Source of the DNA: a virus
Virus record (IMG/VR): IMGVR_UViG_3300035670_000127
Span: 17,364-81,363 of that record
DNA length: 64,000 bases
Reading direction: 5' to 3' (one strand)
Under the pieces are notes generated by a model, which had not been told where the DNA came from, searched no databases, and saw only the letters and a program-made list of their open reading frames with translations. Shown here piece after piece: positions 20,494 to 55,602 of the stretch. The position numbers and the translations under genes were made by a program. Each line of letters begins with the position of its first letter. The stretch's first letter is position 1.

Positions 20494-20509
20494 TTCACAG
20501 TTTATGCCA
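20494..20509 (-). promoter_or_regulatory. sigma54 (-24/-12)-like promoter
   Basis: TGGCATAAACTGTGAA just upstream of ORF 20448. Confidence 0.6.
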
Positions 20510-20513
20510 AAAC

Positions 20514-20552
20514 GAAAAAAGCTATTGGATTCAAATACATCCAATAGCTTTT
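20514..20552 (-). terminator. terminator after ftsK-like gene
   Basis: AAAAGCTATTGGAT/ATCCAATAGCTTTT with U-run on minus strand. Confidence 0.75.
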
Positions 20553-20571
20553 CATTGGTAGTGTCAAGGCA

Positions 20572-20602
20572 TGTGTCCAATTTTTGGACTACGCTTTACA
20601 CT
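20572..20602 (-). promoter_or_regulatory. candidate upstream activator sequence, copy 1
   Basis: AGTGTAAAGCGTAGTCCAAAAATTGGACACA, 29/31 identical to 55493-55523, containing palindrome GTCCAA-N3-TTGGAC. Confidence 0.7.
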
Positions 20603-22628
20603 TGCTAATTTCTGATTTTATATGGCCAATATACCTGTCTATAAGCCCGTCATTATCAGTGTGGTTTCTACTAAAAACAGGGGTGTGCAATCTCGTTACT
20701 TTGTCACCCGTATCTCTCAGCAATGCGTCCCCCGTTTCAATTAGCTTATTCGCAGGGAAGTTCGCCCCTCCAAAGGTATAAGCATCCTTCGGGCTGTTAA
20801 GCAAGAATGATAGCTTGGTCGACTCCTCTATCAATCTACTGCCACTCGCGCCAAATATCCCTTTCATTGCAAACGTGCCGACGGAGTAGAAAAAAATTCC
20901 GTACTTACGGCCAGTGGTGACAATACTAGCGATAATCGACCCCAGCCGCTCCCTAGTGCCTTTATCATTAAACAAGGCACCTACCTCCTCCAATACAATA
21001 AAGATAATAGGAAGCGTGTCTTTACCCTCTTTGGTCAACTTCGCATTTACCGTGGTGATGTGCTGACATTGATATTTCTGTAGCAATGCCACTCGATTCT
21101 GAAGCTCGTTAGCCAACTTCTCAAGCATTTTCACCGACTCAAGGTGAGAGGTTGCCGTCCCCTGAATAAAACTATCTTTTAGCGGCGCATACTTCATTGC
21201 CGTCGCCCCGTTTATATCACTGATATAATAGGCTAACTTGAGTCGCTTGGTCTTAATTGACCACAGCATTTGGTAAATCAAAATAGAGTGCAATAAGCTA
21301 CTTTTGCCACTCCCTTTACGTCCCACGATAAGAAGGTCTTGCAGTTTAAATCCGCACTTGATAACACGGTTAGCACCTACGTCTGTGCCTAGTAAAATTG
21401 GCAATTCAACACCTTTAGGAATTGATGCAATACTCCCTTTAATTAACTCCTTAAACAACACCGTTCCCCTGGCGTCGCTTGGTTTATTCACCACGTACAC
21501 GTAATGGCTATCCTGCACCTCAAAAGTGACATCGTTTTGACCTACCCCCATTAACCTAGCTATCTCCCCTTCTGCTTTACGCCACGTCTCCTGCTGGCCG
21601 ATAACAGCGGAGGTGGGAGACATGGTAAAACGAGTGGTAAAGATTCCATCGTGGCGGTTAAGGTCGGTGAAGCCTAACCCTAAAGTGATTAACCCGTCCC
21701 TTATCTTATCCTCTATTACATCTCCCTTGCTAGGGTTTGGTAATTGAGTGGTTAGTTTAGGTGACACGGCCTTAACCACTTGCAACTCCTTCTTAGGAGG
21801 TGCGGCCTTAGCCACTAGCCTGACTGGTTCTGTCACTTTAGGAGGTGCGGGCATAACAGGCGTGGTCACAATGTCTGTCAATACCGGCACCTCGTTTTGA
21901 AACGGTTTAGAAGTTATCCCAATCCTCTGGTGGCTGCTGCTGATTGGGTCGGCTGTTTCCTGAGTTAACGGCATGGGGTCTGTCGTTTCTATTGCCTGAG
22001 TTCGTTGGCCTCTCACTCGGTCTGCCCATGCGGGGAGCGTGAGAGGTGGGATTTTTTTTTTAACAGCGATTTGTATTCTATTCACTACCGGCTCCATACG
22101 GTGGCCATAGAGGTCGTAGCCCAAGACAAACATGCTTAGGCAACATACCGCAATAATCGCCAATCCCCCTAACATAACAAGCGACATAGTAACCCCAAAC
22201 CACTCGACTGGGTATAACCACACCTGCCCCACGATATTCAACATATTGCCACTTCTGTCAGTAGGGATAGGCCATTGATTCTCGATAATCTTAATCACCT
22301 CCCAACCCGATATGAAAAACTGGGTAACTATAAGGCTAACGCCTCCTTTTACCAGCACCCAAATTGTTTCGCCTTGAGTAATAATGGCCTGACATGACCC
22401 TAGCCAAAAGATGATAGACGACAGGATAATAAAAGTATCCAAATAGTATCTGCCAAATACCATCTCCAACGTCAAATAGACAGGTACTGCCACCGTACCC
22501 ACATCCCCAGGTGCGACATTGAGTGTGATAGCGTCTTGCAAATGCAACATCCCTTTGATATACCAGAAAGATATATACGAGACAATTGCACAACCCGCAA
22601 GAACTTTAATCGATCCATGTTTTTCCAT
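20589..22628 (-). CDS. FtsK/SpoIIIE-family DNA translocase, membrane anchored
   Basis: N-terminal TM helices, Pro-rich linker, alpha domain, LPILLG.D, LLIVGRKGSGKS, IFIVLEEVG, GRKYGI, L..TGDALL. Confidence 0.85.
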   Translation of the reverse strand: MEKHGSIKVLAGCAIVSYISFWYIKGMLHLQDAITLNVAPGDVGTVAVPVYLTLEMVFGRYYLDTFIILSSIIFWLGSCQAIITQGETIWVLVKGGVSLIVTQFFISGWEVIKIIENQWPIPTDRSGNMLNIVGQVWLYPVEWFGVTMSLVMLGGLAIIAVCCLSMFVLGYDLYGHRMEPVVNRIQIAVKKKIPPLTLPAWADRVRGQRTQAIETTDPMPLTQETADPISSSHQRIGITSKPFQNEVPVLTDIVTTPVMPAPPKVTEPVRLVAKAAPPKKELQVVKAVSPKLTTQLPNPSKGDVIEDKIRDGLITLGLGFTDLNRHDGIFTTRFTMSPTSAVIGQQETWRKAEGEIARLMGVGQNDVTFEVQDSHYVYVVNKPSDARGTVLFKELIKGSIASIPKGVELPILLGTDVGANRVIKCGFKLQDLLIVGRKGSGKSSLLHSILIYQMLWSIKTKRLKLAYYISDINGATAMKYAPLKDSFIQGTATSHLESVKMLEKLANELQNRVALLQKYQCQHITTVNAKLTKEGKDTLPIIFIVLEEVGALFNDKGTRERLGSIIASIVTTGRKYGIFFYSVGTFAMKGIFGASGSRLIEESTKLSFLLNSPKDAYTFGGANFPANKLIETGDALLRDTGDKVTRLHTPVFSRNHTDNDGLIDRYIGHIKSEISKCKA

Positions 22629-22640
22629 AACCTTAACCTC

Positions 22641-23243
22641 CTAATAGTAGTGATGAATGACATTCCCCTTGTTACCCCCTCCTCTACGGCGGTTGCCGTG
22701 CGACTGGTTAGGGCTATACACAAAGTAGGTTAGGGCACTGATTGCCATGGCGATAGCGACTGCCAAAATAAACATAATTGCAAGGAGGTGCTCTTCGGTT
22801 GACCAAGTGGGTCTCAGTGCGACAGACTCCTCAATCATGCGGCTTAACGTGCCGCTACCTATGTATCCACCCGCATTGACCACCTCCTTTTCATTGAGGG
22901 TATAAGAGTAGGTAAAGTAGCTGGGCATCCAACTCGTTGGAATAGAAGTGGCTTGCAAGTACACATTCCAAGCTCCCGCTATCGTCGACGCGGCGACTGC
23001 TATCACCAGAAAGACAGCAATAACAAATGCTCTCCATACGGGTTTTGAGAATGACAACATAATAATGAACGCGAGGGTGGTAAGCATGGGGACGACATAC
23101 CCCACTCCCCCAAAAAGCAAAGTGAGTACCCTAGTTAGAGGTTCAAATGCCCCTGCATACAGGGAGGTAGTGAGACCGAGGCTTCCTACTATAACAAGCC
23201 CGTTGGCTATGGAAAAAAAATTTTTTTGCGATTTATTACTCAT
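22641..23243 (-). CDS. membrane protein resembling FtsK N-terminal 4TM domain
   Basis: 4 TM helices; LFGGVGYVVP and AGGYIG motifs. Confidence 0.6.
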   Translation of the reverse strand: MSNKSQKNFFSIANGLVIVGSLGLTTSLYAGAFEPLTRVLTLLFGGVGYVVPMLTTLAFIIMLSFSKPVWRAFVIAVFLVIAVAASTIAGAWNVYLQATSIPTSWMPSYFTYSYTLNEKEVVNAGGYIGSGTLSRMIEESVALRPTWSTEEHLLAIMFILAVAIAMAISALTYFVYSPNQSHGNRRRGGGNKGNVIHHYY

Positions 23244-23275
23244 AAAATCCTCTTTAAAATGAAACGGTTACGGGA

Positions 23276-23436
23276 GGTTGACACAAATTGCGTTAGTTTG
23301 TGTTCGGTTGACACAGGTTGACACAGTTTGACGCAATCTGCTATTATTTTACACAAGTTGATACAGTTTAACACAATTTGTGTCAACCTGTGTTAATTTA
23401 GCACAAATTGACGCAATCTGTGTCAACTTGTGTAAA
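23276..23436. repeat. parC-like centromere 1: 10-bp-phased TTGACACA/TTGACGCA repeats
   Basis: About 16 degenerate decamers in both orientations directly upstream of parM. Confidence 0.8.
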
Positions 23437-23491
23437 GTATCGTATAAAAATTTTTACCTGTCAAGGTATATTAAAAAGAGGGTTTATAAAC

Positions 23492-24646: not shown

Positions 24647-24652
24647 GAAACG

Positions 24653-27436: not shown

Positions 27437-27937
27437 TTAGGATTCTTTCCCAAGCCATTGGTCTCTCATTCTTTCATACTTCTTGAACCTTTCGGGTTCA
27501 AACAACCTACATAATTCCATTTCTTCTCCTTTTATCCATGCGAATGGGGCTCTTTCAGCACCATCTCCGAAGTAGTGGCCCAAATTTTTGACCACGAATC
27601 CTTCGTGGTCTTCCAGCGCAACCATATAAACGGTTTCGGCTGGTGCGCCTATCCTTGCCACAACAACTTGTCCGCACCTCACCCCTCCTTTTGGGGTTGC
27701 GGAGTACGGTGTGTATCCGGTTTCCTCGCACACCTTATGGACAAGCTGAATTGCAGGGGTGATGAGTCGATTTAAATCTGCGAAATGAGGGAGTCGTGTT
27801 ATCTTGTCAACCCTTATGATCCTGTCATCTTCATCACAAATGAGTCTCTCGAACCCGCGATGACGGTAAGAGAGTTCTACTGCATGGGTTTCCGTTTTTT
27901 CAAACGAAAATAAATCTGAAAAGCTGTCTAAAAACAT
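27437..27937 (-). CDS. hypothetical protein
   Basis: ORF with AGAGGA RBS. Confidence 0.75.
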   Translation of the reverse strand: MFLDSFSDLFSFEKTETHAVELSYRHRGFERLICDEDDRIIRVDKITRLPHFADLNRLITPAIQLVHKVCEETGYTPYSATPKGGVRCGQVVVARIGAPAETVYMVALEDHEGFVVKNLGHYFGDGAERAPFAWIKGEEMELCRLFEPERFKKYERMRDQWLGKES

Positions 27938-28015
27938 GGTCGTTTCCTCTTTATTTTATTGGCGATAGTTAGGTTAGAAAATCACGTCCTCTTTTGGGGT
28001 TTGTTAAATTGGTTA

Positions 28016-28068
28016 GTGTTACTCTAAAATCACCCTGTGCCGGTCCCACGGAGTGACTTTAGACTAGC
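28016..28068. repeat. palindromic intergenic repeat, copy 1
   Basis: GTGTTACTCTAAAATCAC...GTGACTTTAGA. Confidence 0.8.
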
Positions 28069-28070
28069 GG

Positions 28071-28310
28071 CTAATCACCGTTAGAAAACAGCACCGTATC
28101 TGCCGCGTAATACCTCCCTTTGTCGTGCCAAAACGCGGTGATTCTATCCATTCCTTCGCAAAATCCGAAGGATGCAATGACCGTTTGGCCATTCGTTAAT
28201 TCCACCTCTCGCTTAAAGAACTTCGGCGGGAGTGCGTTTAAAAAGGAATCAAACTCCTCCTCTGTTACCTCTACAATCTTTCCTTCTTGAATCTCTTTCC
28301 AGTTAATCAT
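28071..28310 (-). CDS. small phage protein (DUF1419-like)
   Basis: EVTEEEFDSFLNALPP...FGFCEG...TAFW. Confidence 0.65.
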   Translation of the reverse strand: MINWKEIQEGKIVEVTEEEFDSFLNALPPKFFKREVELTNGQTVIASFGFCEGMDRITAFWHDKGRYYAADTVLFSNGD

Positions 28311-28330
28311 ACTGTAGTCCTCGTTTATTG

Positions 28331-28374
28331 GTGTTACTCTAAAGTCACCTCTAACCGAGTGACTTTAGAGTAAC
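28331..28374. repeat. palindromic intergenic repeat, copy 2
   Basis: GTTACTCTAAAGTCAC/GTGACTTTAGAGTAAC perfect 16-bp IR. Confidence 0.85.
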
Positions 28375-28379
28375 GGCTA

Positions 28380-28775
28380 TTACCGAGATGCCATGCAAGC
28401 CGCATCCGAGTTCCTGTGAGCTTTTCTTATGAGACCCATCGTTTTGGAATTTTTTGGGAGTGGTGATAAAACGAAGTTGCCTTCGTGCGTCATCACCTCC
28501 AATACCTCCTTCTCTTTCACCGTCTTTGTAATCCCGTTGCCTTCGTAATAGGTTTGCCAAGTCACTCGGCAACCTTCATAGGTATCCCCAGATACAAACC
28601 CAAACCCACATTCACCCGACAAGATAATCCATGCCACCGTTCTGGCGGTTTTTTCAGATACGGTGACTCCTTGTTTTCTTGATTCTCTCAAGATACTTCT
28701 AACGTAAACTTGAGTTGCTTCCTTAGAGTAAGAGGCGGATTGTTCTGCTAATGTTTCTGCTAGTGAGTATTTCAT
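28380..28775 (-). CDS. hypothetical protein
   Basis: ATG 28775 with AAGGTG RBS. Confidence 0.7.
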   Translation of the reverse strand: MKYSLAETLAEQSASYSKEATQVYVRSILRESRKQGVTVSEKTARTVAWIILSGECGFGFVSGDTYEGCRVTWQTYYEGNGITKTVKEKEVLEVMTHEGNFVLSPLPKNSKTMGLIRKAHRNSDAACMASR

Positions 28776-28804
28776 GTAACACCTTGTTAATTTTTGAGGT
28801 AGCT

Positions 28805-28864
28805 GCCTCGTCAGCACCGGGAGTCAATTCTCGGTGGACTCCCCAAACATCGGGGAGTTTCGGC
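28805..28864 (-). ncRNA. type II hammerhead ribozyme
   Basis: GCC-GAAA-CUCCCC(loop)GGGGAG-UC^CACCGAGA(loop)UCCCGGUG-CUGACGA-GGC; complete core and three stems. Confidence 0.88.
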
Positions 28865-29111
28865 TATTTATTTTGGGATGCAAGTTGAATTGCATCCGCT
28901 GGACTAACCCTATACCATTTGTTTGGGAAGTGTACCCACATCGGGGAATCCAATACTATTGCTACGAAGCGACTTAAAACAGCACAAATTCCATTCTCTC
29001 GGTTTATAAATCCTTATGCAGTCTCGCGACTCTATATCCATACACTTTACGCTTAACCGTGTCTCATCCGCGCTTCGCTGGCAATTGATAATTTTTTAGA
29101 TTGTTACTTCA

Positions 29112-29147
29112 GTGTTACTCTAAAATCACCTCTAAACGAGATGATTT
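29112..29147. repeat. palindromic intergenic repeat, copy 3
   Basis: GTGTTACTCTAAAATCACCTCTAAACGAGATGATTT. Confidence 0.75.
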
Positions 29148-29201
29148 CGTGGTTATTCGTTTGTAGTTACTTCGCTATCCATATAATAAGTCCATCCCTA
29201 A

Positions 29202-29519
29202 ATTTTTCAATACACTTTACTTTAAATATTTTCTATACTAAAGTTTTCGTGTTATACTTTTTATTATTCAAGTATTGTGCCACACGCCAAAAGCTAATGA
29301 AAATGCGCCTGTAGCGAATGTGGCGGTTTTCACTTTTATGACATTTTGTCAGCCTGTATTAGCATACTAATCGTGGGTCGGCGCATAAATAAAGGGTTTG
29401 CGGTATATTTGGCTGTTATGGCATTTTGTCACCTAGTCCAAGAAAGTTAATGGTGACGCGGGTTTTGATTATGACAAAATGTCAAAGCGATATTTTATAA
29501 GTAAAGTGTATTGAAAAAT
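29202..29519. promoter_or_regulatory. divergent control region bounded by a perfect 21-bp inverted repeat, with three TGACA-N3-TGTCA operators
   Basis: AAGTAAAGTGTATTGAAAAAT at 29499-29519 (+) and 29202-29222 (-); palindromes at 29339-29351, 29419-29431, 29472-29484. Confidence 0.75.
29267..29282 (-). promoter_or_regulatory. sigma54 (-24/-12)-like promoter
   Basis: TGGCACAATACTTGAA. Confidence 0.55.
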
Positions 29520-29579
29520 ATCAGATTGGCACTATATTATAATCAATAAAATAATTCACATAAGCGCGGGTGTACACGC

Positions 29580-30938
29580 ATGAAAAAAGTAGCTAAGGTG
29601 CTGATTGTATCACCAAATCATCAGTTGTCATTACACATCGGGGGTGTGGTAAAAAGGTGTGGTTATAGCGCACGGGTTATCTCGTCCGCTTTTGATATGA
29701 ATGAATTGGATGAATACCAATTCGTTCTGGTTGACGAAGAATTTGTAGAGTTTGCAAGTGAGGGTTGGATTATCCTTTGCCGACAAGAAACCGCTGATTA
29801 TCACCGTCAAAACGGCCTTATTCCTATCGTTAAGCCGTGCCTGCCCCATGATATTTACCGGTGCTTAGGGGTGTCCCCACCTAGCTTGTTAGTGGGCAGT
29901 TCCGAAGCGATGGTGTTGCTTCGGAAAATGGTTAGCAGACTTGCACCCCACGGGTTGCCTATTTACATTCATGGTGAGACGGGCGTGGGTAAAGAAGTGG
30001 TTGCAATGGAATTGCACAACCTGTCAGGCCGTCAGGGGGAGTTGGTCGTGGTCAATTGCGCCGGCTTTAGCAATGAGCTGTTAGCAAGCGAGTTGTTTGG
30101 ACATGAAAAAGGCTCTTTCACGGGCGCGGATAAGGAGAAGAAGGGGTTATTTGAACTGGCGCACGGCGGAACTATCTTTTTAGATGAGATAGGTGATATG
30201 CCTCTCCAGTGCCAGGCGAAGTTATTGAGGGTTTTGGAAAATGGTACTTTCATGCGGGTGGGAGGGACTAAACAACTTTCCTCCAATGCCCGCGTGGTGT
30301 GCGCAACCCATTACTCGCTTCCTCAATTGGTTAAGGAGAAGCAATTTAGGGGTGACTTATACCAACGGTTAAACGGCTTTACGATTAACATACCACCTCT
30401 TAGGGAACGGCTAGGTGACGTGCCCGGACTGGTTCAGTCATTCCTGCCGGGCGTCGGCTTTACTGGGGAGGCAATGCAATACATGCAATCGCTTCGCTGG
30501 CCGGGCAATGTCAGGGAACTGAAACAGGTCTGCCAACGGATTGAGATTTTTAGGGATGGGGAGGTGACTAAGGGTGTGGTCAAGATGGTCACCGACATTG
30601 ACATCGTGGTTAATGATGCACTCCCACTACCTGAGTCCAAAGGAGGGGATCATCAAGAGATTATCGGTGCGTTAGCTAACCTCACTGCGACGCTATCTAG
30701 TATGCAAGCCGGCGGGGCAGTCAAGACAGTGGTGGCAGTTGAAAAAGAAGAGAGGTCGGTTAATAATGGTGTGGTGTTGAGATTTAACGGTGTACCCACT
30801 CGAAACGACGTAATGAGGGCTTACTTCAAGGAGGTTTACGACCTTTGCGGGGGTAACATGAAACGAGTGGCAGAGGCAATGGGTATCTCTCGCACCACGT
30901 TGTACACAATGAGAAGCGAGTTAGAGTTAGAGGAATAA
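29580..30938 (+). CDS. sigma54-dependent transcriptional activator (NtrC-family bEBP)
   Basis: Degenerate REC, GETGVGKE, ELFGHEKGSFTGA, GGTIFLDEIGD, QAKLLRVLE, WPGNVREL, Fis-type HTH. Confidence 0.96.
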   Translation: MKKVAKVLIVSPNHQLSLHIGGVVKRCGYSARVISSAFDMNELDEYQFVLVDEEFVEFASEGWIILCRQETADYHRQNGLIPIVKPCLPHDIYRCLGVSPPSLLVGSSEAMVLLRKMVSRLAPHGLPIYIHGETGVGKEVVAMELHNLSGRQGELVVVNCAGFSNELLASELFGHEKGSFTGADKEKKGLFELAHGGTIFLDEIGDMPLQCQAKLLRVLENGTFMRVGGTKQLSSNARVVCATHYSLPQLVKEKQFRGDLYQRLNGFTINIPPLRERLGDVPGLVQSFLPGVGFTGEAMQYMQSLRWPGNVRELKQVCQRIEIFRDGEVTKGVVKMVTDIDIVVNDALPLPESKGGDHQEIIGALANLTATLSSMQAGGAVKTVVAVEKEERSVNNGVVLRFNGVPTRNDVMRAYFKEVYDLCGGNMKRVAEAMGISRTTLYTMRSELELEE

Positions 30939-32402: not shown

Positions 32403-32780
32403 ATCTGTATAGACTGTATGCAGTCGGTTAATCGAACCCCATACACGGAACCCTGCATATCTACAAGCCCCTATCCGTGCGGGTTTCCACCGTATAGGGT
32501 TCGATAATGGAGTGCATACGGTCCTATACAAATTCACTTTTGTATTGGCCAACCCCATACTGGCAGTTTCATAAGAAACCTAGCAACGGCGCGGTGTTTA
32601 GTTAAATTAACCTCGCTGTCAGTGCGTATAGGGTTGTATGCCGTAGTGGGTCTGTATAGACTGAAAACAGGATTTTACCGAATCCTAGAGTGCCCTGTTT
32701 ATGCGGGTCTAGGGGATTCGATAATTGCGTTTAAAGACCCTATTTTTACCAAACCCTATACAAGTCTATACAGTCTATAC
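32403..32780. repeat. Iteron-like locus B
   Basis: TGTATAGACTGTAT and CCCTATACA motifs; TACAAGCCCCTATCCGTGCGGGTTTCC is the reverse complement of 49849-49875. Confidence 0.75.
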
Positions 32781-34589
32781 ACTCACATCCGCCCATTGTT
32801 TTTCCTTTTCGTACCCCAATAGCCATGCCAAAACCATCGATTCAGTCAAGGCGGTTTGCGCCTCTTTACGTGGGAGTTGATAGAATCGGATTAACTGAGT
32901 TTGTAGGTCGGCGACCGAGTCGGCTTTTTCAACTATGTCCACTAATCGTTCTAAGTCTTTAGCTAAGAAACGGCTGTAGCTTTTTGCCGACCTTAGTTTG
33001 ATAATATCCAGTGGGTCATTAGGGGATAAGGTACTCACCCAATCTCTATTCCCGGCACTGTATTCATGACCACATTCACCGCATTGGCAACCCTCCCCAT
33101 GGTATGCTGAAAACGCCACCGTGTCTCGATGTTCAAGGTCGTCAGGAAGTGCGAGACCATCTTCAATTTGTCTCTCTTCTTGAGGTAGGTCGGCCTCTAC
33201 CACATCTTGAACCGTTGGTTCATTGCTATCTGATTCACTGCCAACCTGAGAGGATTCAGTCACCACCTGAGTCGCTTCCTCTAGCGAATCCCATTCACCC
33301 TCATACCCAGGTAAAATCGCCTCACCTTTGGTTGCTAATTCTACTTGCAATCTATCGCTTACAAATTGCAATGGTAAGGGTAGGTACTTACGGATAATAT
33401 CAAAACTCTCAGCCGCGGTCTTTTTAGCCTCACTTTCCTCGTAAAACTCAAAATAAGGAGATCTAACCTTCTCTCCAAAGTTAAACCGCGTGACTAAGAA
33501 AAAGAGGTGATTCATAGTGGAGGCTATCATCTTACGATGCGCCTCGGTGACCATCCCTTCGGATTCCAAATGAGTAGCGGCGGCGGCCCGTGAGCCTTGG
33601 TCTGTGATTTCAACTCCTAAAGTAGAGGATAGAATCGCTTTGGATAACTCACTATTCACTAGGTCAATAAAGCCACTGTGAATCATTTTCTCACTCGTCT
33701 TAGCCTCCATAAATTCGACGGCGACGTTATCCGGGACGGCGGCGCAAGCCGAATCTAACATGTTGCTTAACTGATTCAGAATGGTATCAATTGCCTCCGC
33801 TTTGGTGCCGGGTGGGTATTTACCAATTGCCCATGGACTGCCATGCCGTTCGATAAATTTGACATAATACTCCATCACCATGCGCTTGAAATTCACTAGC
33901 CAATAGCAGGAGGATAGAGCGGCAAAACCGTAGGGATTATCCACTGTCGCACGGTGGCGAGTAAGGAGGTAATTATTGGGGTGCAAGGGTTCACCTAAGA
34001 AGTTCCCACGAGTCCTGACCAAAGGGAGGCCGTAAGGTGTGAATAACACCCGTCGCCTGGGCACGTCAATCAATTCGATAGGTAACAGATACTTGCCTTT
34101 GTAATCCCAAACAATCTCCTTTAAATCAAAACCATAAAGGACGCATTCATAAACCTTAAAATAGAAGTCATCCCAGCTAAAGTTAGGGGAGGGTGGCGTA
34201 TCCAAAATCTTTTCACACAATGCCGCGGCCAGCTTATCTACTTTACGCAACCCGCCCGGCTGTACGTGCGTCTCAAAACGTACTAAACCGGCATACATTC
34301 TTTGGATAATGCCAGCGACATGCGCATCCTCTGCCAACCTCTCATACACGGGCACGGTCTGGGCGTACCCTAGCCTAGCCAACGTTGGGTCGGGGTTAAG
34401 GACGTAAGGGAGAGCGTGAATGAAGTCAGGGTCGTTGTCGACGCTAGTGACTCGTTGCCCGGTCATCTCCCCAGTTGTATTCTCTTCCCCTTGTTGATAG
34501 GTTGGGATAGATAACGTTGGAAACGGCGCACTGAATTGATAGGCTTTTATTAACGAATCGTAAAGACTGGGTCGGTTAATGCTTTTCAT
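32775..34589 (-). CDS. portal protein (Mu gp29/DUF935 family)
   Basis: EDAHVAG, LYGF..EIVW, NPYG, FIERHGSPW.IGKY, ELSKAIL..TL, GSRAAA..H. Confidence 0.93.
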   Translation of the reverse strand: MKSINRPSLYDSLIKAYQFSAPFPTLSIPTYQQGEENTTGEMTGQRVTSVDNDPDFIHALPYVLNPDPTLARLGYAQTVPVYERLAEDAHVAGIIQRMYAGLVRFETHVQPGGLRKVDKLAAALCEKILDTPPSPNFSWDDFYFKVYECVLYGFDLKEIVWDYKGKYLLPIELIDVPRRRVLFTPYGLPLVRTRGNFLGEPLHPNNYLLTRHRATVDNPYGFAALSSCYWLVNFKRMVMEYYVKFIERHGSPWAIGKYPPGTKAEAIDTILNQLSNMLDSACAAVPDNVAVEFMEAKTSEKMIHSGFIDLVNSELSKAILSSTLGVEITDQGSRAAAATHLESEGMVTEAHRKMIASTMNHLFFLVTRFNFGEKVRSPYFEFYEESEAKKTAAESFDIIRKYLPLPLQFVSDRLQVELATKGEAILPGYEGEWDSLEEATQVVTESSQVGSESDSNEPTVQDVVEADLPQEERQIEDGLALPDDLEHRDTVAFSAYHGEGCQCGECGHEYSAGNRDWVSTLSPNDPLDIIKLRSAKSYSRFLAKDLERLVDIVEKADSVADLQTQLIRFYQLPRKEAQTALTESMVLAWLLGYEKEKQWADVSV

Positions 34590-45978: not shown

Positions 45979-47985
45979 TTAGTTGATTAAGTCTATACTG
46001 CATTGCCCTGATTTGCAATCTTCGGATTCGGCTGCAACCCGTCGGTCAAATTGTCTGTCTAAATTGGTGTTATCCCAATCAATCGACTTGATTAATTCCG
46101 AACGCCGTTGGTATTCGGCGGCTGTCACTGGGGTTTGTGGGAGGTACGACTTGTTATCAATACTATCATAATTTTCGTATTTAAGCATAAATGCAGTGCT
46201 CACGTAGTCATCCCAATTTCGATAAATCCAGTTGGCCATGCCGTCAAGCTCTGGTTCCGTAAAAGTGACGGTGCTACTTACGCTGGTGCCGGAGTAGTTT
46301 CTTATTAGCACTTGATAGCGATTAAGTTGGTCAAGTGCCGTCTCAGCGCACATGTCGATACCAGCCGCATTCGTCTGCCATTTGAAATCACCTTCCCAAT
46401 GAATTGGAAACCCAATGATTACTGAACCCTCTATGTGAGGATTGGGTCGCACTTCAAGGCCGTGCGATTCTAGTAACGGCACCACCGGATCCGAGCCTGC
46501 AAAATTAACATAGTTAATTAAGTGTTTTGCAATTGGATGGTGTGTACCCTCAGATGTCATAAATATACCTTTGCCGACGGTGCCATCTGGTTTAACTGTT
46601 GTGTACGTTGCGGAATGAGGTAAATCTAATTCGTCTGCCATGTCATTAGCACCCTGAATCACGGCCTGCCGCAAACCCCTTAATTCTTCAGGACGATGAT
46701 ATATGCCGCTTTGTACAATACCAGAGATACCTGCACCAATATGGTGGTCGCGTTCGTTATTCCGCGACCACCTTGGGTCTAAAATCCCATCGTCTAACTT
46801 GACGAGAGTTTGGCGGTAGGCAACCCTGGCCGCTAGGTAAGCCACGCGCCGTTGTTGTTGATAGGTGCCTATGTTGGCGTTAATCGTGACTTGGTTGCAA
46901 AGGCCAAAAAAATCTAATAATTGTTCGCCGCATGGATTAACACCCTTGCAATGTGTAAAGCGACGTTGCGCCGCCTCTAGGTTAATAAACCCAGGTTCGC
47001 TTCCTCCGCCTTCATAGATGAGTTGAAATAACTCACGAATGGTACTCAGGGACGGTCTGGAACTAAACAGTAACGAGTGATTCGCAATGTAACGATGGCT
47101 AGTCAAGGGATTATCATAATACCTGTCCTTGGAGTGGATAAAACCGTTTCGTTCCTCATGACCGTAAGGCAATTGCATCAAGGCCGCCGACCTGCGACTT
47201 GATAAAATGGTTGCGCTTAACCCCACCACATCTATAATATCTATCGCTGTTAAAGGTTTTTGTACGCGGTTGTTTAACAGCATGGCAATTTTCAGATAAG
47301 AGTCGGCAATTCTTTGGTCGCCACTCGTTTTCCACTGATACCCCGAAGTCTGTTGACCTGCACCCCGAATATTGGAAAAATCCAATACAAGCTCAGTGGC
47401 GCGGATTTCTACACCATTAAATTGATGTGTCAGGAGTATTCCAAAAGCCTCCGCCCATGCAACGGCACTGTCACCCACACTGATTGTCCACACGCCATTC
47501 TCTAAAGTTTGCGTGTTAAAGGTACGTCCCTTCTCTATACGGGTGGAACGAATCACACTGACTTTGGGGATGTAGTGGGAGAATCCAAAAATACCCCCAG
47601 TCCGCGGTTGCACAGAGACACCGCAACCTTGCAATAATAACCATAATGCGTTAACTGCATTGTCGGGCGTATGAACCTCTAATAGTGAGCAATTGAAGCT
47701 CGTCACCTCAACTTCCCGTGATTTAGCTGTCCCGCCTAGCCAATTCACACGCCCCGCCGAACTCCACATCCGTTGGGCTTTATAGTGGGTGTATTCGGCT
47801 ATCTCAGAACGCTCCTTTGCGTTAAGTTCTCGACCTAGTTGTCGTTGCCATAAGTAAGCGTCGTGCTCTGCTGTGCGGTTTAGCATATCCATATACGTTT
47901 CTTGCACACCATCGGGTTTCATTCGTAAATATTTTTGGCGTAAAATCGTTTCTGCGCGTGCCAGCATAGAAAAATTGTATTCCAT
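45979..47985 (-). CDS. nrdJ: class II (AdoCbl-dependent) ribonucleotide reductase, monomeric RTPR-like
   Basis: FNCS, SRRSA, EPGFIN, NPCGE, LCN, TTVKPDGT, YLPQ, C-terminal CKSGQC. Confidence 0.92.
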   Translation of the reverse strand: MEYNFSMLARAETILRQKYLRMKPDGVQETYMDMLNRTAEHDAYLWQRQLGRELNAKERSEIAEYTHYKAQRMWSSAGRVNWLGGTAKSREVEVTSFNCSLLEVHTPDNAVNALWLLLQGCGVSVQPRTGGIFGFSHYIPKVSVIRSTRIEKGRTFNTQTLENGVWTISVGDSAVAWAEAFGILLTHQFNGVEIRATELVLDFSNIRGAGQQTSGYQWKTSGDQRIADSYLKIAMLLNNRVQKPLTAIDIIDVVGLSATILSSRRSAALMQLPYGHEERNGFIHSKDRYYDNPLTSHRYIANHSLLFSSRPSLSTIRELFQLIYEGGGSEPGFINLEAAQRRFTHCKGVNPCGEQLLDFFGLCNQVTINANIGTYQQQRRVAYLAARVAYRQTLVKLDDGILDPRWSRNNERDHHIGAGISGIVQSGIYHRPEELRGLRQAVIQGANDMADELDLPHSATYTTVKPDGTVGKGIFMTSEGTHHPIAKHLINYVNFAGSDPVVPLLESHGLEVRPNPHIEGSVIIGFPIHWEGDFKWQTNAAGIDMCAETALDQLNRYQVLIRNYSGTSVSSTVTFTEPELDGMANWIYRNWDDYVSTAFMLKYENYDSIDNKSYLPQTPVTAAEYQRRSELIKSIDWDNTNLDRQFDRRVAAESEDCKSGQCSIDLIN

Positions 47986-48015: not shown

Positions 48016-48327
48016 CTAGTTATTCTCTTTTTGTGATTTACTACATTCTGATTCTAGCCAACTCAGTGCCGCTTCATAAACGGTAACCGGGTTAGCACCC
48101 TCTTTTATACGAACCTCTAAACCACGCACCAGTCGCCTTGCTAATTCCATTGGGTCAGGGTGGGAAATAAGGAGGTTTCGTATATACTTACTATTGCCAA
48201 AATCGTGCCCAAATAGGTTGGTTGTGTGGGCTTTGATGAGGTCAACACCGTCATCTGCAATCTCGTAATGACTGACAGGTCGAACGGTTCTGTCCTCTGC
48301 CAGTCGGCAATACTTTACTCGCTTCAT
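48016..48327 (-). CDS. hypothetical protein
   Basis: ORF translationally coupled in operon. Confidence 0.7.
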   Translation of the reverse strand: MKRVKYCRLAEDRTVRPVSHYEIADDGVDLIKAHTTNLFGHDFGNSKYIRNLLISHPDPMELARRLVRGLEVRIKEGANPVTVYEAALSWLESECSKSQKENN

Positions 48328-49763
48328 TTTGGGGTTGCCTCTCCTAATCTGTTTTCAGCACGGGCTAACTCACGGCCAACGTAAAGCGCATGGGATATAT
48401 CTGAAATAGCCTCGTCGCGTGCCAATTCTCGTTCTATCTCTTCACTTGTTGAACCGCGGTATTCTTTTATCACGGCCCCTTGATAGGTGTGTTGAACCAC
48501 TATTTGAGAGGTTGTCTTATCCACTGTCACCATCATGTTGCCATAGGGGTCGAGTTGTAATTCAACTCTCTTTTCTTTAGAGGCTACTCGACTGGCACGG
48601 TCAAGGCTGTCTTCACTGATACTAATTGAGTGGCTAAAGATGGTGATGGCACCCGGCTCCATGCCCGTCCCTTTGGCAACGTAATGAAGGATAGCTATGA
48701 GACCGTACATATTCTCTAACCACGCATCCATTGCGTTATGGGTTCTAAAGGAAGCGGTTAGGGTTAGTTTGCCTTCAAAGTATCTGAAAAAAAGCGAGAC
48801 TAGGCATGGGCAATGATGTCCCTCTGGCAAGTCTTTACTATTATCCCATAACGAGATATAAACATGACGCGATTCATTATCCTCTTGCAACCGTTTAATT
48901 GCAATAGCGAGTGAGTCCACTACTCGACCATGATAGCTAAAGTAACCACGAATGCGGTTGCCATAAGTGTACGGTTGGTCATTGGGAGAGGGGTCTAGGA
49001 TTTGATTCTGGTATTCTAGGAAGTGGGTAGTGGAGAAACCGTACTCCTCTAAATCACTCATGTCAATTGCCGTGTCAGTCACCGTCACCTTGACGTTTTG
49101 CAACTCGCGGCGACCTCCTTTCTTTAATCTCACCGCATGGCCAAAACGCATCAATCTAAATACCACTTCACGCCATGCCTTGATAGGGGTTGATTCCAGG
49201 ATACTATGATGCCGTGGGTCAGACGGATAACGTGTCACTTTAAGCCTTGAGAGTGGAATATTAACCCTATCTAGGTCGCCGTGGCATTCAGGGTTGGGTA
49301 ATTGTTGGAACGCTTCTTTTATCCTCTCTATTGATTCACTGAGTCGCCCCATTGGTAGGAGGTGTAATCCGTATTTGAAGTCGGCGGGTGTAACTAGGTT
49401 ATCAATCATGCGTTGGCTACCTTTGATACGGTATGCCGGGCTACCTAAATAGGTGACCTCCTCAATGCCCAGTTGAAAGAAATTTAGCAGGTCTTCGCGT
49501 GATCCAGAAAGGTTTTGACCCACGATTAAAAGATGGCGGATTTGAGGATTCCATAGCAGGTTTCTAAGTAATTCAGGTAGGCCGTTGCCATAAAGGTTGC
49601 CTATCGTTGCTATACGGGAGGTGTGAATGGATAAATCAATGCCCGCAGTCCAAAGCGACTTGACCATCTGTTTAATGGGGGTCCATAGAGTCACTATACC
49701 TACGTCCCCACTGGGATTTATCACTCTAATTTTGTCAGGGTAGTGTAGGGGTTCAAATTTCAT
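48324..49763 (-). CDS. MtrA-like/thymidylate synthase/DUF4346 fusion protein
   Basis: N-term GNLYG.GL..LLRNLL.NPQIRHL (MtrA-like); YTYGNRIR, SRH, PCL, FRTHN..AW.EN, SHSI (TS); C-term DPYG, HALYVGRELARAE. Confidence 0.85.
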   Translation of the reverse strand: MKFEPLHYPDKIRVINPSGDVGIVTLWTPIKQMVKSLWTAGIDLSIHTSRIATIGNLYGNGLPELLRNLLWNPQIRHLLIVGQNLSGSREDLLNFFQLGIEEVTYLGSPAYRIKGSQRMIDNLVTPADFKYGLHLLPMGRLSESIERIKEAFQQLPNPECHGDLDRVNIPLSRLKVTRYPSDPRHHSILESTPIKAWREVVFRLMRFGHAVRLKKGGRRELQNVKVTVTDTAIDMSDLEEYGFSTTHFLEYQNQILDPSPNDQPYTYGNRIRGYFSYHGRVVDSLAIAIKRLQEDNESRHVYISLWDNSKDLPEGHHCPCLVSLFFRYFEGKLTLTASFRTHNAMDAWLENMYGLIAILHYVAKGTGMEPGAITIFSHSISISEDSLDRASRVASKEKRVELQLDPYGNMMVTVDKTTSQIVVQHTYQGAVIKEYRGSTSEEIERELARDEAISDISHALYVGRELARAENRLGEATPK

Positions 49764-49787: not shown

Positions 49788-50370
49788 GTGTATAGACTTG
49801 TGTAGTTTTGTATAGGCTGTATAGGGCCTGTCATCACAGCCCTATACACGGAAACCCGCACGGATAGGGGCTTGTATGGACTGTATGGGGTTAGCGGGCA
49901 TTTTTTTCACTTGCTTATATATTTGGGCAATGCTTTTTTTACATTTCAAAATAATATATGTGTGTATACACCCCTATACACCCTATACAGTCCATACAAG
50001 CCTTTATTCATGCGGGGTTCCACCGTCTAGGGGTCGATTAGCTAACTGCTTACAGTCTATACAGACTCCCTGAAAGGGTATTCTAACAAACCCTTTAAAC
50101 AAGCCACTCTTAGCTAAATCGCACACTTTGTAAGTAGGCTTGCGTAGAGTGTACGGGGTAGCCTTAAAGGCTTTTTGCAAAGTCTTACTCGAAACCTCAA
50201 AAAACCTAGATACCAAGCCACTCTCAGTGAGATTTACCAAACCCTCAAATATCCAAAAAACCGTTTGTATAGGGTTGGCCGAAAAGCTAGGCAGTAAGCC
50301 ACTCTCAGCCAATTTTGGATAAAACGCTAAAACAGCCCTACTTTAAACCTGTATAGGGTTAGTCTATACA
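49788..50370. repeat. Iteron-like locus C (second origin-like element)
   Basis: Same architecture as locus A: GGCTTGTATGGACTGTAT (49869-49886) / ATACAGTCCATACAAGCC (49985-50002) around an AT-rich core, plus further shared blocks. Confidence 0.78.
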
Positions 50371-51700: not shown

Positions 51701-52066
51701 ATGAAAGAAAAGTTTAGTCACTCTAAAATTAAAGCCGCTATCAAGGGTAGCGGGGGTGTGAAGTTAAGAGTATGTAAGGCTATTAATATATCTCGTCCCC
51801 ACCTTGACCATTTATTAAAGAAATGGCCTGACTTGCAAGCCGCTATAGAAGCTGAAAAGGAGGATATGGTTGACATGTATGAATCAACACTACATACTAT
51901 TGCCATTAAAGAAAAGGACATAAAAGCTATTATGTTTTATTTACGCTACTCAAAAGCTGGCCGCAACCGTGGCTACGGCATTGAGTCCGAAACCCCTAAA
52001 GGAGGCAACGTTAACGCCATCCTAGAAGGATTAGCTAATAAAATTGAACAAGGTGGAGACGAATAA
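51701..52066 (+). CDS. terminase small subunit (putative)
   Basis: HTH N-terminus, AIMFYL..K...RGY; upstream of terL. Confidence 0.75.
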   Translation: MKEKFSHSKIKAAIKGSGGVKLRVCKAINISRPHLDHLLKKWPDLQAAIEAEKEDMVDMYESTLHTIAIKEKDIKAIMFYLRYSKAGRNRGYGIESETPKGGNVNAILEGLANKIEQGGDE

Positions 52067-52068
52067 TT

Positions 52069-52686: not shown

Positions 52687-53956
52687 TGTGACCGGTAAAG
52701 CCGACGATCCACGCTTTGATGGTATGGCAGTTAGATACCTAAAATACGAATTAGAACGACTAGGAGCCACCGTAGTTAACTTACCCCAATTAGCCGACAT
52801 AGTATTGCTATCCAGTGTAAGCGCGGCTCACTGGAAATCAGTACCCTCCCTCATTAAGAAAAACGGTATCCGACGCAATAGGCAAAAAATCATACTAGGA
52901 GGCCAATGTTCGACCTCTCCAAAATCTTTTGAGGATTATGTCGATATTATTTGTGTAGGGGAGGGTCGCAGGTTTATAGAGACATTAGTAAATGGCGGAT
53001 TTAATGAAGCCGCCAAATTACCTAACAGTTGGATAAAAGGGGAGGATAGAGAAGTTATACCAGACTATGACTTCCCTTACGATATTCCACCTATTAAGTG
53101 CCTTGACGGGCAGACGCGAATATTTGCATCAAGGGGTTGCAAAAAGAAATGCCTATTTTGTCAAATTGGCTGGGATAGAGAGTATACAGAAAACAGTCCA
53201 GAAAGAGTAGCATACTTAGAAAAACAACTTATCACTAACAGACATAAAATCAACTATGTAACCAATGATTTACCTAGCCTGAGCTTCTTTAATCAACTGA
53301 ATCATTACGAGCATTTTTCTGGGAGCTACTCTCACTTAAAAATAATGCTACAGGAAATCGGATTAAAATCCCTATATAGCAAAATGGGTGATAACCCTTC
53401 TATAAGGATAGGTGTAGAGGCAAGTAGCGAAAGACTAAGGAGGTTCATTGGTAAGCCAATAAAAACTAAAGATTTACTTGAAACAAGTTGCCTTTTGCTT
53501 AACTACGGTTTCAAGGTCAAGTGGTTTATGATTCTAGGGTTGCCTGGCGAAACAGACGATGATTTTATGGAGCTAAGAGAGTGCGTAAATTACGTTAAGC
53601 ATAATGTAACCAGAGGGTTATTAAGAATTAACTTTACGGCATTCCAACCCTTTCCGTCTACTCCTTTATGTATCCCTCCTTTAGAGGATTCATACCAAAC
53701 ACGGATTGATAGTTTTTATGATTGGTTTTTTGAAAAGAGCGGCTACACTTGCAGAGTGCAACTTTTAAGAGGCTGCAAGCCCGCCTCACGCCTAGAACAA
53801 GCCATGGGTATTATGAGTTGCACTGAAGAGGAATTACGTCGCGGCTGGTTATTTCATGACCCTCCTAATTGGAGAGTCAGGTATGCCTACCGCGATAAAA
53901 TCAGAATAGCCTATAACGCTTATGCCAAAAAGACTGGGTTGCCAGTCGGCAAATAA
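52667..53956 (+). CDS. B12-binding-type radical SAM protein
   Basis: IILGG, VGEG, SRGCKKKCLFC, IGVE..SERLR, MILGLPGET, F.P.PSTP. Confidence 0.88.
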   Translation: MRFAIIDVTGKADDPRFDGMAVRYLKYELERLGATVVNLPQLADIVLLSSVSAAHWKSVPSLIKKNGIRRNRQKIILGGQCSTSPKSFEDYVDIICVGEGRRFIETLVNGGFNEAAKLPNSWIKGEDREVIPDYDFPYDIPPIKCLDGQTRIFASRGCKKKCLFCQIGWDREYTENSPERVAYLEKQLITNRHKINYVTNDLPSLSFFNQLNHYEHFSGSYSHLKIMLQEIGLKSLYSKMGDNPSIRIGVEASSERLRRFIGKPIKTKDLLETSCLLLNYGFKVKWFMILGLPGETDDDFMELRECVNYVKHNVTRGLLRINFTAFQPFPSTPLCIPPLEDSYQTRIDSFYDWFFEKSGYTCRVQLLRGCKPASRLEQAMGIMSCTEEELRRGWLFHDPPNWRVRYAYRDKIRIAYNAYAKKTGLPVGK

Positions 53957-53959
53957 CTT

Positions 53960-55243
53960 ATGCCATGGAAAATCCCAGCCCGTAGCACCCTCCCACACCG
54001 CTCTATCCTAACCTCCGCTGACCCTGACGGGTCGCGGTTAAACCTTTGGGTAGGGTCGGTGCGTTCGGGCAAAACCATCACCTCCTTACTCGCCTTTCTG
54101 AAATGGCTAAACCATGCACCGCCGGGTCCACTCGCCATCACTGGCAACACGAGTGACACGATTAACCGTAATATCCTACTCCCCTTAATGGACTTTTTAG
54201 GAGGTGAGCCGCTCTGTGATTTTTCCGTGGGGAGACGAATAGGGAAGTTATTTAACCGCACGGTGCATATCGTATCCGGCAACGATGAGTCCAGTTACAA
54301 GCGATTGCAAGGGGCGACCTTCGCTGGCGCCTACTGCGACGAGGTGACAACCTATCCTAAATCATTCTGGCTAATGCTACTCAGTCGCCTGTCATTAAGA
54401 GGCGCGAGACTATTCGGCACGACCAACCCAGACGTGCCAACCCATTGGCTAAAGACTGAGTTTATAGATAACGAGGAGGTGGATAACAAACGGGTCTTTC
54501 AATTCAGTTTATACGACAATCCATTCCTAGACCCTGACTACATTCACTCCTTAGAAACTGAGTACACTGGGGTTTGGAAAAAGAGATACATAGAGGGGCT
54601 TTGGGTAGCTGGGAGTGGGGTGATTTACGATTGCTTTGGGGAGGCTAACATCATTGCAGATAGTAAGCAATACCTATCGCGTTGCCAACGGGTGTGGGCA
54701 GGCTGTGACTACGGTACCGTCAATCCCCTGGCGTTCGGTTTATTTGGACTGGACTATGACGGGCAAACGATATACCAGTTTGCAGAATATTACTACGATT
54801 CTAAACAAACTGGTATCCAAAAAAGTGATGACGATTACGTCGTGGCCATTCAAGAATTTTTAGAAGGGTTGGGGATGCAAGTGAGTACCCTTGACGGCAT
54901 GTACGTCGACCCCTCCGCCGCTTCTTTTATCCTAGCTTTACGGCAAGCCGATGTACCTGTCATTCCTGCCCATAACGCGGTATTAGATGGCATTCAACAC
55001 GTCTATACACTTCTCTCTAAAAAACAACTCCTTATTGATGTGGGGTGTGTCAACACCATCAAACAACTCTATAGTTATTCGTGGGATACTCGCGCATCCA
55101 ATCGTGGTAAAGAACAACCTCTTAAATCAGATGACCACGCGGTGGACTGCCTTCGCTATGCGCTTTGGTCAACTAAAATTAGAGAATCGGATTACACCGG
55201 CCTAGAAGGAATTGTCACCCGTCCCCGTACTAGGAGGGGTTAG
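53960..55243 (+). CDS. terL: terminase large subunit (PBSX family)
   Basis: GSVRSGKT, YCDEVT, TTNP, DNPFL, DYGTVNP, VDPSAA, DDHAVDCLRYA. Confidence 0.96.
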   Translation: MPWKIPARSTLPHRSILTSADPDGSRLNLWVGSVRSGKTITSLLAFLKWLNHAPPGPLAITGNTSDTINRNILLPLMDFLGGEPLCDFSVGRRIGKLFNRTVHIVSGNDESSYKRLQGATFAGAYCDEVTTYPKSFWLMLLSRLSLRGARLFGTTNPDVPTHWLKTEFIDNEEVDNKRVFQFSLYDNPFLDPDYIHSLETEYTGVWKKRYIEGLWVAGSGVIYDCFGEANIIADSKQYLSRCQRVWAGCDYGTVNPLAFGLFGLDYDGQTIYQFAEYYYDSKQTGIQKSDDDYVVAIQEFLEGLGMQVSTLDGMYVDPSAASFILALRQADVPVIPAHNAVLDGIQHVYTLLSKKQLLIDVGCVNTIKQLYSYSWDTRASNRGKEQPLKSDDHAVDCLRYALWSTKIRESDYTGLEGIVTRPRTRRG

Positions 55244-55415
55244 GGTCGCAGTGGAGGTGATAAAAAGTCGCCTCCACCTCCTTTGGCCTACCCTCTTTTT
55301 CCATCCCTTGAATTGCATACCGAATGAAGGGCGACTCGACCTCAATAATCGACCCGCAACCCTTGCATAACATCACGGTATCATTACGCTTTGAAAGCAT
55401 GTCTAGTTGAAACAT
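55230..55415 (-). CDS. small Zn-finger-like hypothetical protein
   Basis: CKGC...HLHC. Confidence 0.55.
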   Translation of the reverse strand: MFQLDMLSKRNDTVMLCKGCGSIIEVESPFIRYAIQGMEKEGRPKEVEATFYHLHCDPNPS

Positions 55416-55449
55416 ATACCTATCTCTAATCGTGGTTTTATATCACTAT

Positions 55450-55465
55450 TTCAAAATCAGTGCCA
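55450..55465 (-). promoter_or_regulatory. sigma54 (-24/-12)-like promoter
   Basis: TGGCACTGATTTTGAA upstream of ORF 55415. Confidence 0.6.
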
Positions 55466-55492
55466 CCTTATAATAATTATCTATTCCTTAAC

Positions 55493-55523
55493 AGTGTAAA
55501 GCGCAGTCCAAAAATTAGACACA
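55493..55523 (+). promoter_or_regulatory. candidate upstream activator sequence, copy 2
   Basis: AGTGTAAAGCGCAGTCCAAAAATTAGACACA, 29/31 identical to 20572-20602 (-). Confidence 0.7.
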
Positions 55524-55586
55524 GGAATGGATACTGACACACCACTACCATACCAAACCCCGCATGGCTAGTGATAAATTCCTGAG

Positions 55587-55602
55587 TGGCATAAGGATTG
55601 AA
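55587..55602 (+). promoter_or_regulatory. sigma54 (-24/-12)-like promoter
   Basis: TGGCATAAGGATTGAA upstream of recombination/replication operon. Confidence 0.6.

Follow-up and report, generated by a model that had tools for sequence, protein, structure and literature searches.

The stretch of DNA analysed here, a window of 64,000 nucleotides comprising bases 17364-81363 of the IMG/VR virus record IMGVR_UViG_3300035670_000127 (record length 81,363 bp, 45.6% G+C), comes from a tailed phage that carries an intact gene for a bacterial enhancer-binding protein (bEBP) together with four intergenic sites of the form TGGCAY-N6-TGAA, and that has no sigma-54 gene of its own. We propose, with moderate confidence, that the sigma-54 polymerase of the host (E-sigma54) reads these sites as promoters of the form TGGCAY-N5-(T/G)TGAA and that they are opened by the phage bEBP. 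A preliminary description of the window had arrived at the same pairing of host RpoN with an activator of the phage's own; the intact bEBP, the set of sites and the lack of a phage sigma-54 agree with that pairing, whereas a canonical sigma-54 matrix does not score the sites above chance. The elements on which the argument turns are the following.

bEBP gene, 29580-30938, plus strand: 452 aa, with an N-terminal domain of ~100 aa without Pfam match, an AAA+ domain with a GSFTGA loop and a Fis-type helix-turn-helix (HTH)
Site 1, 20494-20509, minus strand: TGGCATAAACTGTGAA(AT), candidate -24/-12 promoter; predicted +1 near 20483; ATG of a 111-aa gene at 20448
Site 2, 29267-29282, minus strand: TGGCACAATACTTGAA(TA); predicted +1 near 29256
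Site 3, 55450-55465, minus strand: TGGCACTGATTTTGAA(AT); predicted +1 near 55439; a single 61-aa open reading frame (ORF; 55415-55230) behind it
Site 4, 55587-55602, plus strand: TGGCATAAGGATTGAA(AT); predicted +1 near 55613; ATG at 55644
Terminator-like hairpin with a T run, 20516-20553, minus strand: between site 1 and copy A of a 31-bp element described below

Four sites between genes

The motif TGGCAYNNNNNNTGAA has exactly four matches in the window, where 0.28 are expected, and none of 100 dinucleotide shuffles reached that number; a scan of the whole genome (81,363 bp) returned the same four TGGCAY-N6-TGAA matches and no further one, and the canonical form TGGCAY-N5-TTGC has no match in it. 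All of them lie between genes and each is directed into the next gene, as had been described at the outset, and the counts (four intergenic, none in ORFs) do not give the equal frequency inside ORFs that the preliminary description had named as speaking against its reading. Three are situated 24-45 nt upstream of a start codon, and in three of the four the motif extends to TGAAATA. With the GG placed at -25/-24, as was done in computing the starts listed above, the predicted leaders would measure ~35 nt (site 1), ~24 nt (site 3), ~31 nt (site 4) and about 400-440 nt (site 2).

Promoters of the sigma-54 type have the consensus TGGCAC-N5-TTGCW, in which the GC at -13/-12 is near-invariant. Set against this consensus, all four sites keep TGGCAY with GG at -25/-24, all have ten bases between the GG and the G at -13, and the TG at -14/-13 is present throughout, preceded by T at -15 in three of the four. 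The GG-N10-G spacing, with GA for GC at -12, thus holds for the whole set, as first described. It is the recurrence of the phage's own motif, and not the canonical matrix considered further below, that provides the statistical strength. Taking TGGCA or TTGAAA as a -35 box was tried and rejected, no -10 element being present at a consistent 16-18 bp across the four sites.

Two of the sites could be followed into relatives. Site 1, the sole promoter-like feature after the terminator-like hairpin (no sigma70-like promoter was found in 20300-20750), is identical in both related metagenome loci (L149 and L150), in which the stretch from the terminator to the ATG is unchanged and the gene body beyond it diverges; this conservation is weak evidence, because the end of the upstream gene is equally conserved there. 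The core of site 2 has no listed change in contigs of three sequencing runs from different studies (X3, X10 and X16), and its spacer has one, T29275C, in X16; some bins of this comparison are without cover and 18 differences fall outside those listed, so that the lack of a listed change is not proof of identity.

The activator gene and the palindromes near the sites

The bEBP matches the Pfam model Sigma54_activat (PF00158) at 7.9e-62 over 167 of the 168 profile positions, AAA_lid_14 at 1.2e-10 and, at its C-terminus, HTH_8 at 4.7e-5 (23.5 bits, cut-off 22); when isolated, the C-terminus gave weak matches in the Protein Data Bank (PDB), none of them informative. E values against FlrA, FleQ, NtrC1 and PspF range from 1e-55 to 1e-60, and the nearest counterparts of the AAA+ core are those of the host flagellar regulators FlrA and FleQ. 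The motifs GETGVGKE, GHEKGSFTGA, TIFLDEIGDM, RVVCATH and WPGNVREL (Walker A/B, sensor/arginine) align to those of the solved proteins FlrA, FleQ, NtrC1 and PspF, with GSFTGA opposite the GAFTGA loop of FlrA and FleQ. Pfam and alignment therefore agree with the NtrC-family activator of the preliminary description, in which the GSFTGA loop, the Walker motifs and the Fis HTH had been recognized, and by its sequence the protein is a complete NtrC-type enhancer-binding protein, predicted to activate E-sigma54. Every motif is kept in six or seven natural variants of 92-97% identity, so that the gene must be under selection; one variant (P0002) has GAFTGA, and five other close variants have GSFTGA.

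A sigma-54 gene was found in the phage neither at E values up to 10 with two Pfam models nor at the default threshold with a third. Record bases 1-145 are repeated at 81219-81363 (window 63856-64000) with one mismatch, and because of this 145-bp overlap of the ends the genome is taken as closed (circular or terminally redundant) and effectively complete, despite the label 'linear, 92% complete' that the record bears in its collection. Since the record is closed, a sigma-54 gene is not hidden off its end, and the sigma-54 factor would have to be that of the host. In the 30 different window proteins that were scanned by Pfam, with ~99 ORFs called, domains of sigma factors or RNA polymerases did not turn up, nor was a kinase noticed in the scanned set. 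Searches with the bEBP itself were of little help: its matches in a cultured-phage collection, from which no case was drawn, turned out for the most part to be bacterial contigs under wrong labels or metagenome records lacking annotation, and a search of genome contigs gave generic bacterial bEBPs only (33-49% identity), with no clue to the host.

Around the sites and the bEBP gene, promoter-like and palindromic features are present as follows.

Sigma70-like promoters before the bEBP gene, 29511-29555, plus strand: TTGAAA-16/18 and TTGGCA-18-AATAAT
Sigma70-like promoter, 29183-29210, minus strand: TTGAAA-16-TATTAT, 10/12; in tandem with, and downstream of, site 2
31-bp element, copy A, 20572-20602, minus strand: perfect palindrome GTCCAAAAATTGGAC; centre at ~-99 from site 1
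31-bp element, copy B, 55493-55523, plus strand: one-mismatch palindrome; centre at ~-100 from site 4 and ~-74 from site 3
Three TGACA-(A/T)3-TGTCA palindromes, 29339-29351, 29419-29431 and 29472-29484, no strand assigned: between site 2 and the bEBP gene; alternative enhancer or operator candidate

The TTGGCAC before the bEBP gene resembles a -24 box. In runs X3 and X10, however, it reads TTGACAC and so matches the -35 box of sigma-70 perfectly, and it is for this reason regarded as a -35 and not a -24 element. Judging from these sequences, the GG is held where a sigma-54 reading needs it, at site 2, and is lost at the look-alike in the bEBP promoter.

The duplicated 31-bp element was correctly described at first: the copies are identical at 29 of 31 positions and end 63 and 64 bp upstream of the TGGCAT of sites 1 and 4, respectively. 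Copy A contains the stop codon of an FtsK-like gene, and copy B lies between the divergent sites 3 and 4. The DNA between element and promoter is unrelated at the two sites, that at site 1 being the terminator-like hairpin, and as the spacing is nevertheless fixed, element and promoter presumably act together at an enhancer-like distance (~-100). The palindrome GTCCAA-N3-TTGGAC, which had been ascribed to both copies, is exact in copy A only; copy B reads TTAGAC, and so does copy A in the relative L150. By itself the palindrome pattern does not stand out from the chance expectation, with three found and 2.55 expected when two mismatches are allowed. A search with the 17-nt palindrome core also returned one unrelated viral contig (L151:7954-8020) with three tandem copies of TGTCCAATTTTTGGA, which has the same core; these are uninformative as to the protein that binds the palindrome, because they lie inside an ORF and the contig has no regulator in common with the phage.

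The three TGACA palindromes are centred at ~-89, -169 and -222 from site 2. With up to one mismatch, TGACA-N3-TGTCA has seven matches where 1.86 are expected, and the only intergenic ones are these three. The change G29421A makes the middle palindrome perfect in runs X3, X10 and X16, where none of the changes listed affects any of the three cores. The region 29183-29555 has a layout like that of a genetic switch, in which mirror-image sigma70-like promoters with a common 21-bp element flank the three palindromes. Since one of the flanking promoters drives the bEBP gene, the palindromes may equally be operators of a switch. As for the enhancer that the preliminary description had seen in the 31-bp element, the fixed distance backs a functional link to the promoters; the assignment to the bEBP is a guess, for which the conserved TGACA triple is a second candidate.

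Weighing the sigma-54 reading

A number of observations weigh against reading the four sites as sigma-54 promoters opened by the phage bEBP, and they concern the promoters, the palindromes and the host. With regard to the promoters, A is present at -12 in all four (GA, not GC), and the second block, TGAAAT(A), corresponds to no sigma-54 element that we know of. An independent sigma-54 matrix was built from 36 unique canonical sites of other bEBP-bearing viral loci. In a scan of the genome with this matrix sites 2, 3 and 4 rank first, third and sixth, site 1 is outside the top 15, and the highest score in the real genome (11.98) falls short of 13.10, the mean of the highest scores from 20 shuffled genomes. 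When the -12 column is masked, sites take ranks 1, 2 and 4, and the observed first to fourth scores are reached by 45, 14, 2 and 7 of 200 shuffles. The canonical sigma-54 model thus supports the sites modestly at best. The sequence that ranks third under the masked matrix, TTTTGGCATGGCTATTGGGG at 32812-32833 (minus strand), lies in the 3' end of the portal gene and could be an internal site or due to chance.

For comparison, 66 other bEBP-encoding IMG/VR loci (820,520 bp) match TGGCAY-N5-TTGC 56 times, whereas base odds predict ~3 matches. Dozens of the loci L013-L066 carry TTGGCAYG-N4-(C/T)TGCT ~50 nt beyond the end of a short bEBP gene and in the same orientation, with further copies elsewhere; as the loci are interrelated, the 56 matches are not independent events. 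Even so, virus-borne bEBPs do accompany virus-borne sigma-54 promoters. None of the 66 loci, the intergenic DNA of L002-L012 included, has an intergenic site of the GA form, which also counts against our reading. Two matches to that form in L011 were considered as a possible second phage and rejected, both being inside ORFs.

It is thus possible, if on the whole unlikely, that the sites are read by an alternative sigma factor of the host or by an unrecognised phage factor, and that the bEBP is a host-takeover protein acting on sigma-54 genes of the host, such as flagellar or envelope genes. The canonical matrix finds no significant match in the phage, the TGAAAT block is foreign to sigma-54 promoters, and the kinship of the AAA+ core with FlrA and FleQ would suit a protein that acts on flagellar genes; an unrecognised factor could be present, as ~87% of PHROG families are without known function and many ORFs of the phage have no family match. 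On the other hand, that a recurrent motif in a bEBP-carrying genome should by coincidence have both an exact -24 box and the exact distance from it to TTG is unlikely, neither block is followed by a -10 element at a consistent 16-18 bp, and the 30 scanned proteins yielded no domain that such a phage factor would be expected to have.

The palindromes raise a different difficulty. The TGACA palindromes are missing from sites 1, 3 and 4, as is the 31-bp element from site 2; because the two types are split between the sites in this way, one activator with one enhancer fails to cover all four, and two different DNA-binding proteins probably act at the two types. One could then imagine that the promoters are of the sigma-54 type and are driven through the 31-bp element by a FleQ/FlrA-type activator of the host, with the phage bEBP acting on the TGACA triple only and controlling site 2 and its own gene. 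The palindrome GTCCAAAAATTGGAC does loosely resemble the FleQ box GTCaNTAAAtTGAC as quoted in PMC6120874, being one base longer, and different palindromes do serve different sites. We nevertheless consider a host activator improbable: the likeness to the FleQ box is loose, and a phage with a bEBP of its own has little need of one from the host. The HTH of the phage bEBP, without an informative match, does not favour this division of labour either. Another modification, which we regard as doubtful, concerns the promoters themselves. TGGCAY-N5-TTGAA(AT) could be a private class of sigma-54 promoter, on which E-sigma54 docks by means of the -24 box and forms a closed complex tuned to the phage activator, either for easier opening or for insulation from the sigma-54 regulon of the host. 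A bolder version would have a host without canonical sigma-54 and an activator with a different or divergent partner.

The proposal that host E-sigma54 is opened by the phage bEBP requires a host with sigma-54. Among the 120 clamp matches listed, all named relatives of the sliding clamp are gammaproteobacterial (42-47% identity), headed by sulfur bacteria such as Thiomargarita, Thiotrichaceae and Thioploca, with Marithrix also among them, and there is no cyanobacterial name; of the gammaproteobacterial genomes, the five whose clamp comes nearest to that of the phage all have RpoN. For the bEBP, too, those named relatives that have the best E values are proteobacterial. A clamp search of 400 genomes of one class did not narrow the host, since 382 of them match, at 38-46% among the matches listed (the tally includes four genomes flagged as unpublished, G301, G044, G146 and G313, on which none of our conclusions depends), and searches with capsid and portal gave no host signal. 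The genome is also extremely poor in palindromes: GATC occurs 14 times in the whole genome, against 225 expected from a Markov model or 312 from base odds, and eighteen 6-bp palindromes, each expected 0.4-19 times (all but CGATCG at least 3.7 times), are missing altogether. Such avoidance is typical for phages of restriction-rich hosts, cyanobacteria among them, and points here to a restriction-rich host lineage. The best plasmid matches of the P4-type primase are cyanobacterial (33-38% identity), and cyanobacteria rarely carry rpoN, according to a statement in PMC12316311. Clamp and bEBP thus give a gammaproteobacterial signal and the primase a cyanobacterial one, and the latter must also be held against our proposal, as must the absence of any RNA run among those listed with DNA of the phage or its close kin (contigs of subsurface, lake-water, freshwater and wetland runs).

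If the host were a cyanobacterium without sigma-54, the bEBP would have an unknown partner or be a decaying passenger gene. The primase matches and the palindrome avoidance are what would lead one to such a host. We judge this to be very improbable, given the clamp and bEBP relatives just described and the clear constraint on the bEBP in its natural variants; the clamp was weighed above the primase because the plasmid collection consists of cultured organisms only and is hence biased. Finally, that the four matches are a functionless chance pattern is hardly credible even though the pattern was defined after the sites had been seen, since no shuffle reached four, all four are correctly oriented within the 6-8% of the genome that is non-coding (coding share 92-94% on a greedy ORF map), three carry the further ATA, and sites are conserved in relatives.

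Transcription units, genome and comparison with known systems

The units that stand behind the sites are listed here, with the contents of the two operons as given in the preliminary description, from which our assignments do not depart.

Operon behind site 4, 55644-61340, plus strand: ORFs of 71 and 109 aa, a RecE/exonuclease VIII-like protein, a Rad52-family protein, small ORFs, primase and single-stranded DNA-binding protein (SSB)
Operon behind site 1, 15137-20448, minus strand: mostly without assigned function; includes phrog_2045, a beta-propeller repeat protein
Unit behind site 2, 27437-28865, minus strand: type II hammerhead ribozyme, then ORFs of 145, 79 and 166 aa without family match
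Type II hammerhead ribozyme, 28797-28865, minus strand: RF02276, 48.6 bits (gathering score 37)

In the mechanism that we favour, in which host E-sigma54 is opened by the phage bEBP, the bEBP gene would be read early from its ordinary sigma70-type promoters, while host E-sigma54 would be held in closed complexes on TGGCAY-N5-(T/G)TGAA, that is, on the consensus with A for C at -12. The bEBP would then bind an upstream palindrome and open the complexes by ATP hydrolysis through its GSFTGA loop. Four units would be switched on in this way: the recombination/replication operon from site 4, the 20.4-15.1 kb operon from site 1, the 61-aa gene from site 3, and the unit of leader, ribozyme and small genes from site 2. 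With A at -12 and an A/T-rich stretch after it, the -12 'lock' of the closed complex would be weaker and opening easier; the idea of such a lock goes back to mutational work on -12 elements.

In the site 4 operon, the assignments come from matches to phrog_412 (5.1e-45), to primase families, to phrog_44 (1.9e-44) and to Rad52_Rad22 (9e-9). From site 2 it is ~400 nt downstream to the hammerhead ribozyme, with which the GTG called as start of the 145-aa ORF overlaps. Contig pieces from three runs cover it, and there the leader between promoter and ribozyme is mosaic, with segments replaced or skipped. The unit also contains a 29-nt repeat, once per non-coding gap (28016-28044, 28331-28359 and 29112-29140; 72-93% identity). 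In the operon behind site 1, a hairpin-forming stretch after the 111-aa gene (20046-20112, minus strand) is kept in L149 and L150, although the coding DNA on either side has diverged there.

Elsewhere in the genome, major head protein, portal, protease and terminase were identified, by which the phage is recognized as tailed, besides the clamp, a class II ribonucleotide reductase, primases, SSB and the RecE-like and Rad52-like proteins. Two candidates were rejected: 45979-47985 as portal, which is the ribonucleotide reductase, and 48324-49763 as terminase, which is thymidylate-synthase-like. An uninterrupted ORF of 7,052 aa occupies genome positions 1528-22686 (in the window up to 5323, minus strand). 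Non-coding arrays of repeats of the TTGACACA/TTAACACA type are found at 23265-23433 and 59932-60108, ~36.6 kb apart, and arrays of the TGTATAGAC type at 12816-13010, 32404-32670 and 49809-50006; two of the latter three loci have in common a terminator-like stretch of 71 nt and a 32-nt stretch that is 97% identical, and the TGTATAGAC arrays may be a separate regulatory or origin system. Searches of IMG/VR with the exonuclease and the phrog_2045 protein found no close relatives, and a DNA search of cultured phages gave chance matches of 116 bp only.

Textbook accounts of the timing of phage gene expression involve appropriation of sigma-70, phage sigma factors or phage RNA polymerases. If our reading is true, an enhancer-binding ATPase of the phage's own, combined with sigma-54-type promoters before replication genes, would be a fourth strategy, and one that makes phage development depend on a host factor that can be lost in many bacteria, which would bear on both host range and resistance. 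Work on the role of the -12 element has mostly used engineered mutants until now, and the uniform change from C to A at -12 would provide a natural and compact test set for it. Because of their small size, the activator, the two candidate enhancers and the four promoters could all be reconstructed with reporters in a laboratory rpoN+/rpoN- pair of strains.

Among known phage systems, MotA/AsiA of T4 is similar in that a phage-encoded activator turns on middle genes from promoters with a special upstream box, but it works by appropriation of sigma-70, with a -30 box and a normal -10 element, without an ATPase, and not at -24/-12 promoters. The use of sigma-54 by phages is rare and not unprecedented, as PMC5053324 notes in citing the Pseudomonas phage YuA, whose development it calls 'strictly dependent on the host sigma54 factor'; ONT-cappable-seq showed a single region with a sigma54-like promoter in YuA (bioRxiv 10.1101/2023.10.13.562163). 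YuA thus resembles the present phage in expressing its genes via host sigma-54, and differs from it in that the passages on YuA in these two sources mention no phage-encoded bEBP. The statement in the preliminary description that the strategy is not known from characterised phages must be narrowed accordingly: dependence on host sigma-54 has a precedent in YuA, and it is for a true phage-encoded bEBP that we found none in print, as full-text literature searches returned no phage-encoded bEBP with a GAFTGA loop and HTH that controls phage sigma-54 promoters. Htm (Gp204) of the T4-like Mosigvirus AV110 has a bEBP-like AAA+ fold and is proposed to act on the sigma-54 polymerase (bioRxiv 10.64898/2026.10.06.757011); by its authors' account it has neither a GAFTGA loop nor a DNA-binding domain, whereas the bEBP described here has a loop of this type and an HTH.

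The viral contigs L013-L066 share with the phage the presence of a virus-borne bEBP and of sigma-54-type promoters on the same virus. In these contigs, however, the matches span only residues ~104-330, the AAA+ core, while the bEBP of the phage is full length with an HTH, and their promoters have the canonical TTGGCAYG-N4-(C/T)TGCT, while those of the phage carry GA. With respect to the bEBP systems of bacteria, such as NtrC-glnAp2, the flagellar genes under FleQ/FlrA and PspF-pspA, the differences are the A at -12 in all four sites, the location in a phage genome, an activator whose N-terminal domain has no Pfam family, and enhancers that are candidates only. The features shared with them are the -24 TGGCAY, the GG-N10-G spacing and the TTG at -15 to -13, an activator with AAA+ domain, GAFTGA-type loop and Fis-type HTH, palindromes (here candidate binding sites) ~75-100 bp upstream, and two putative promoters that diverge from one element.

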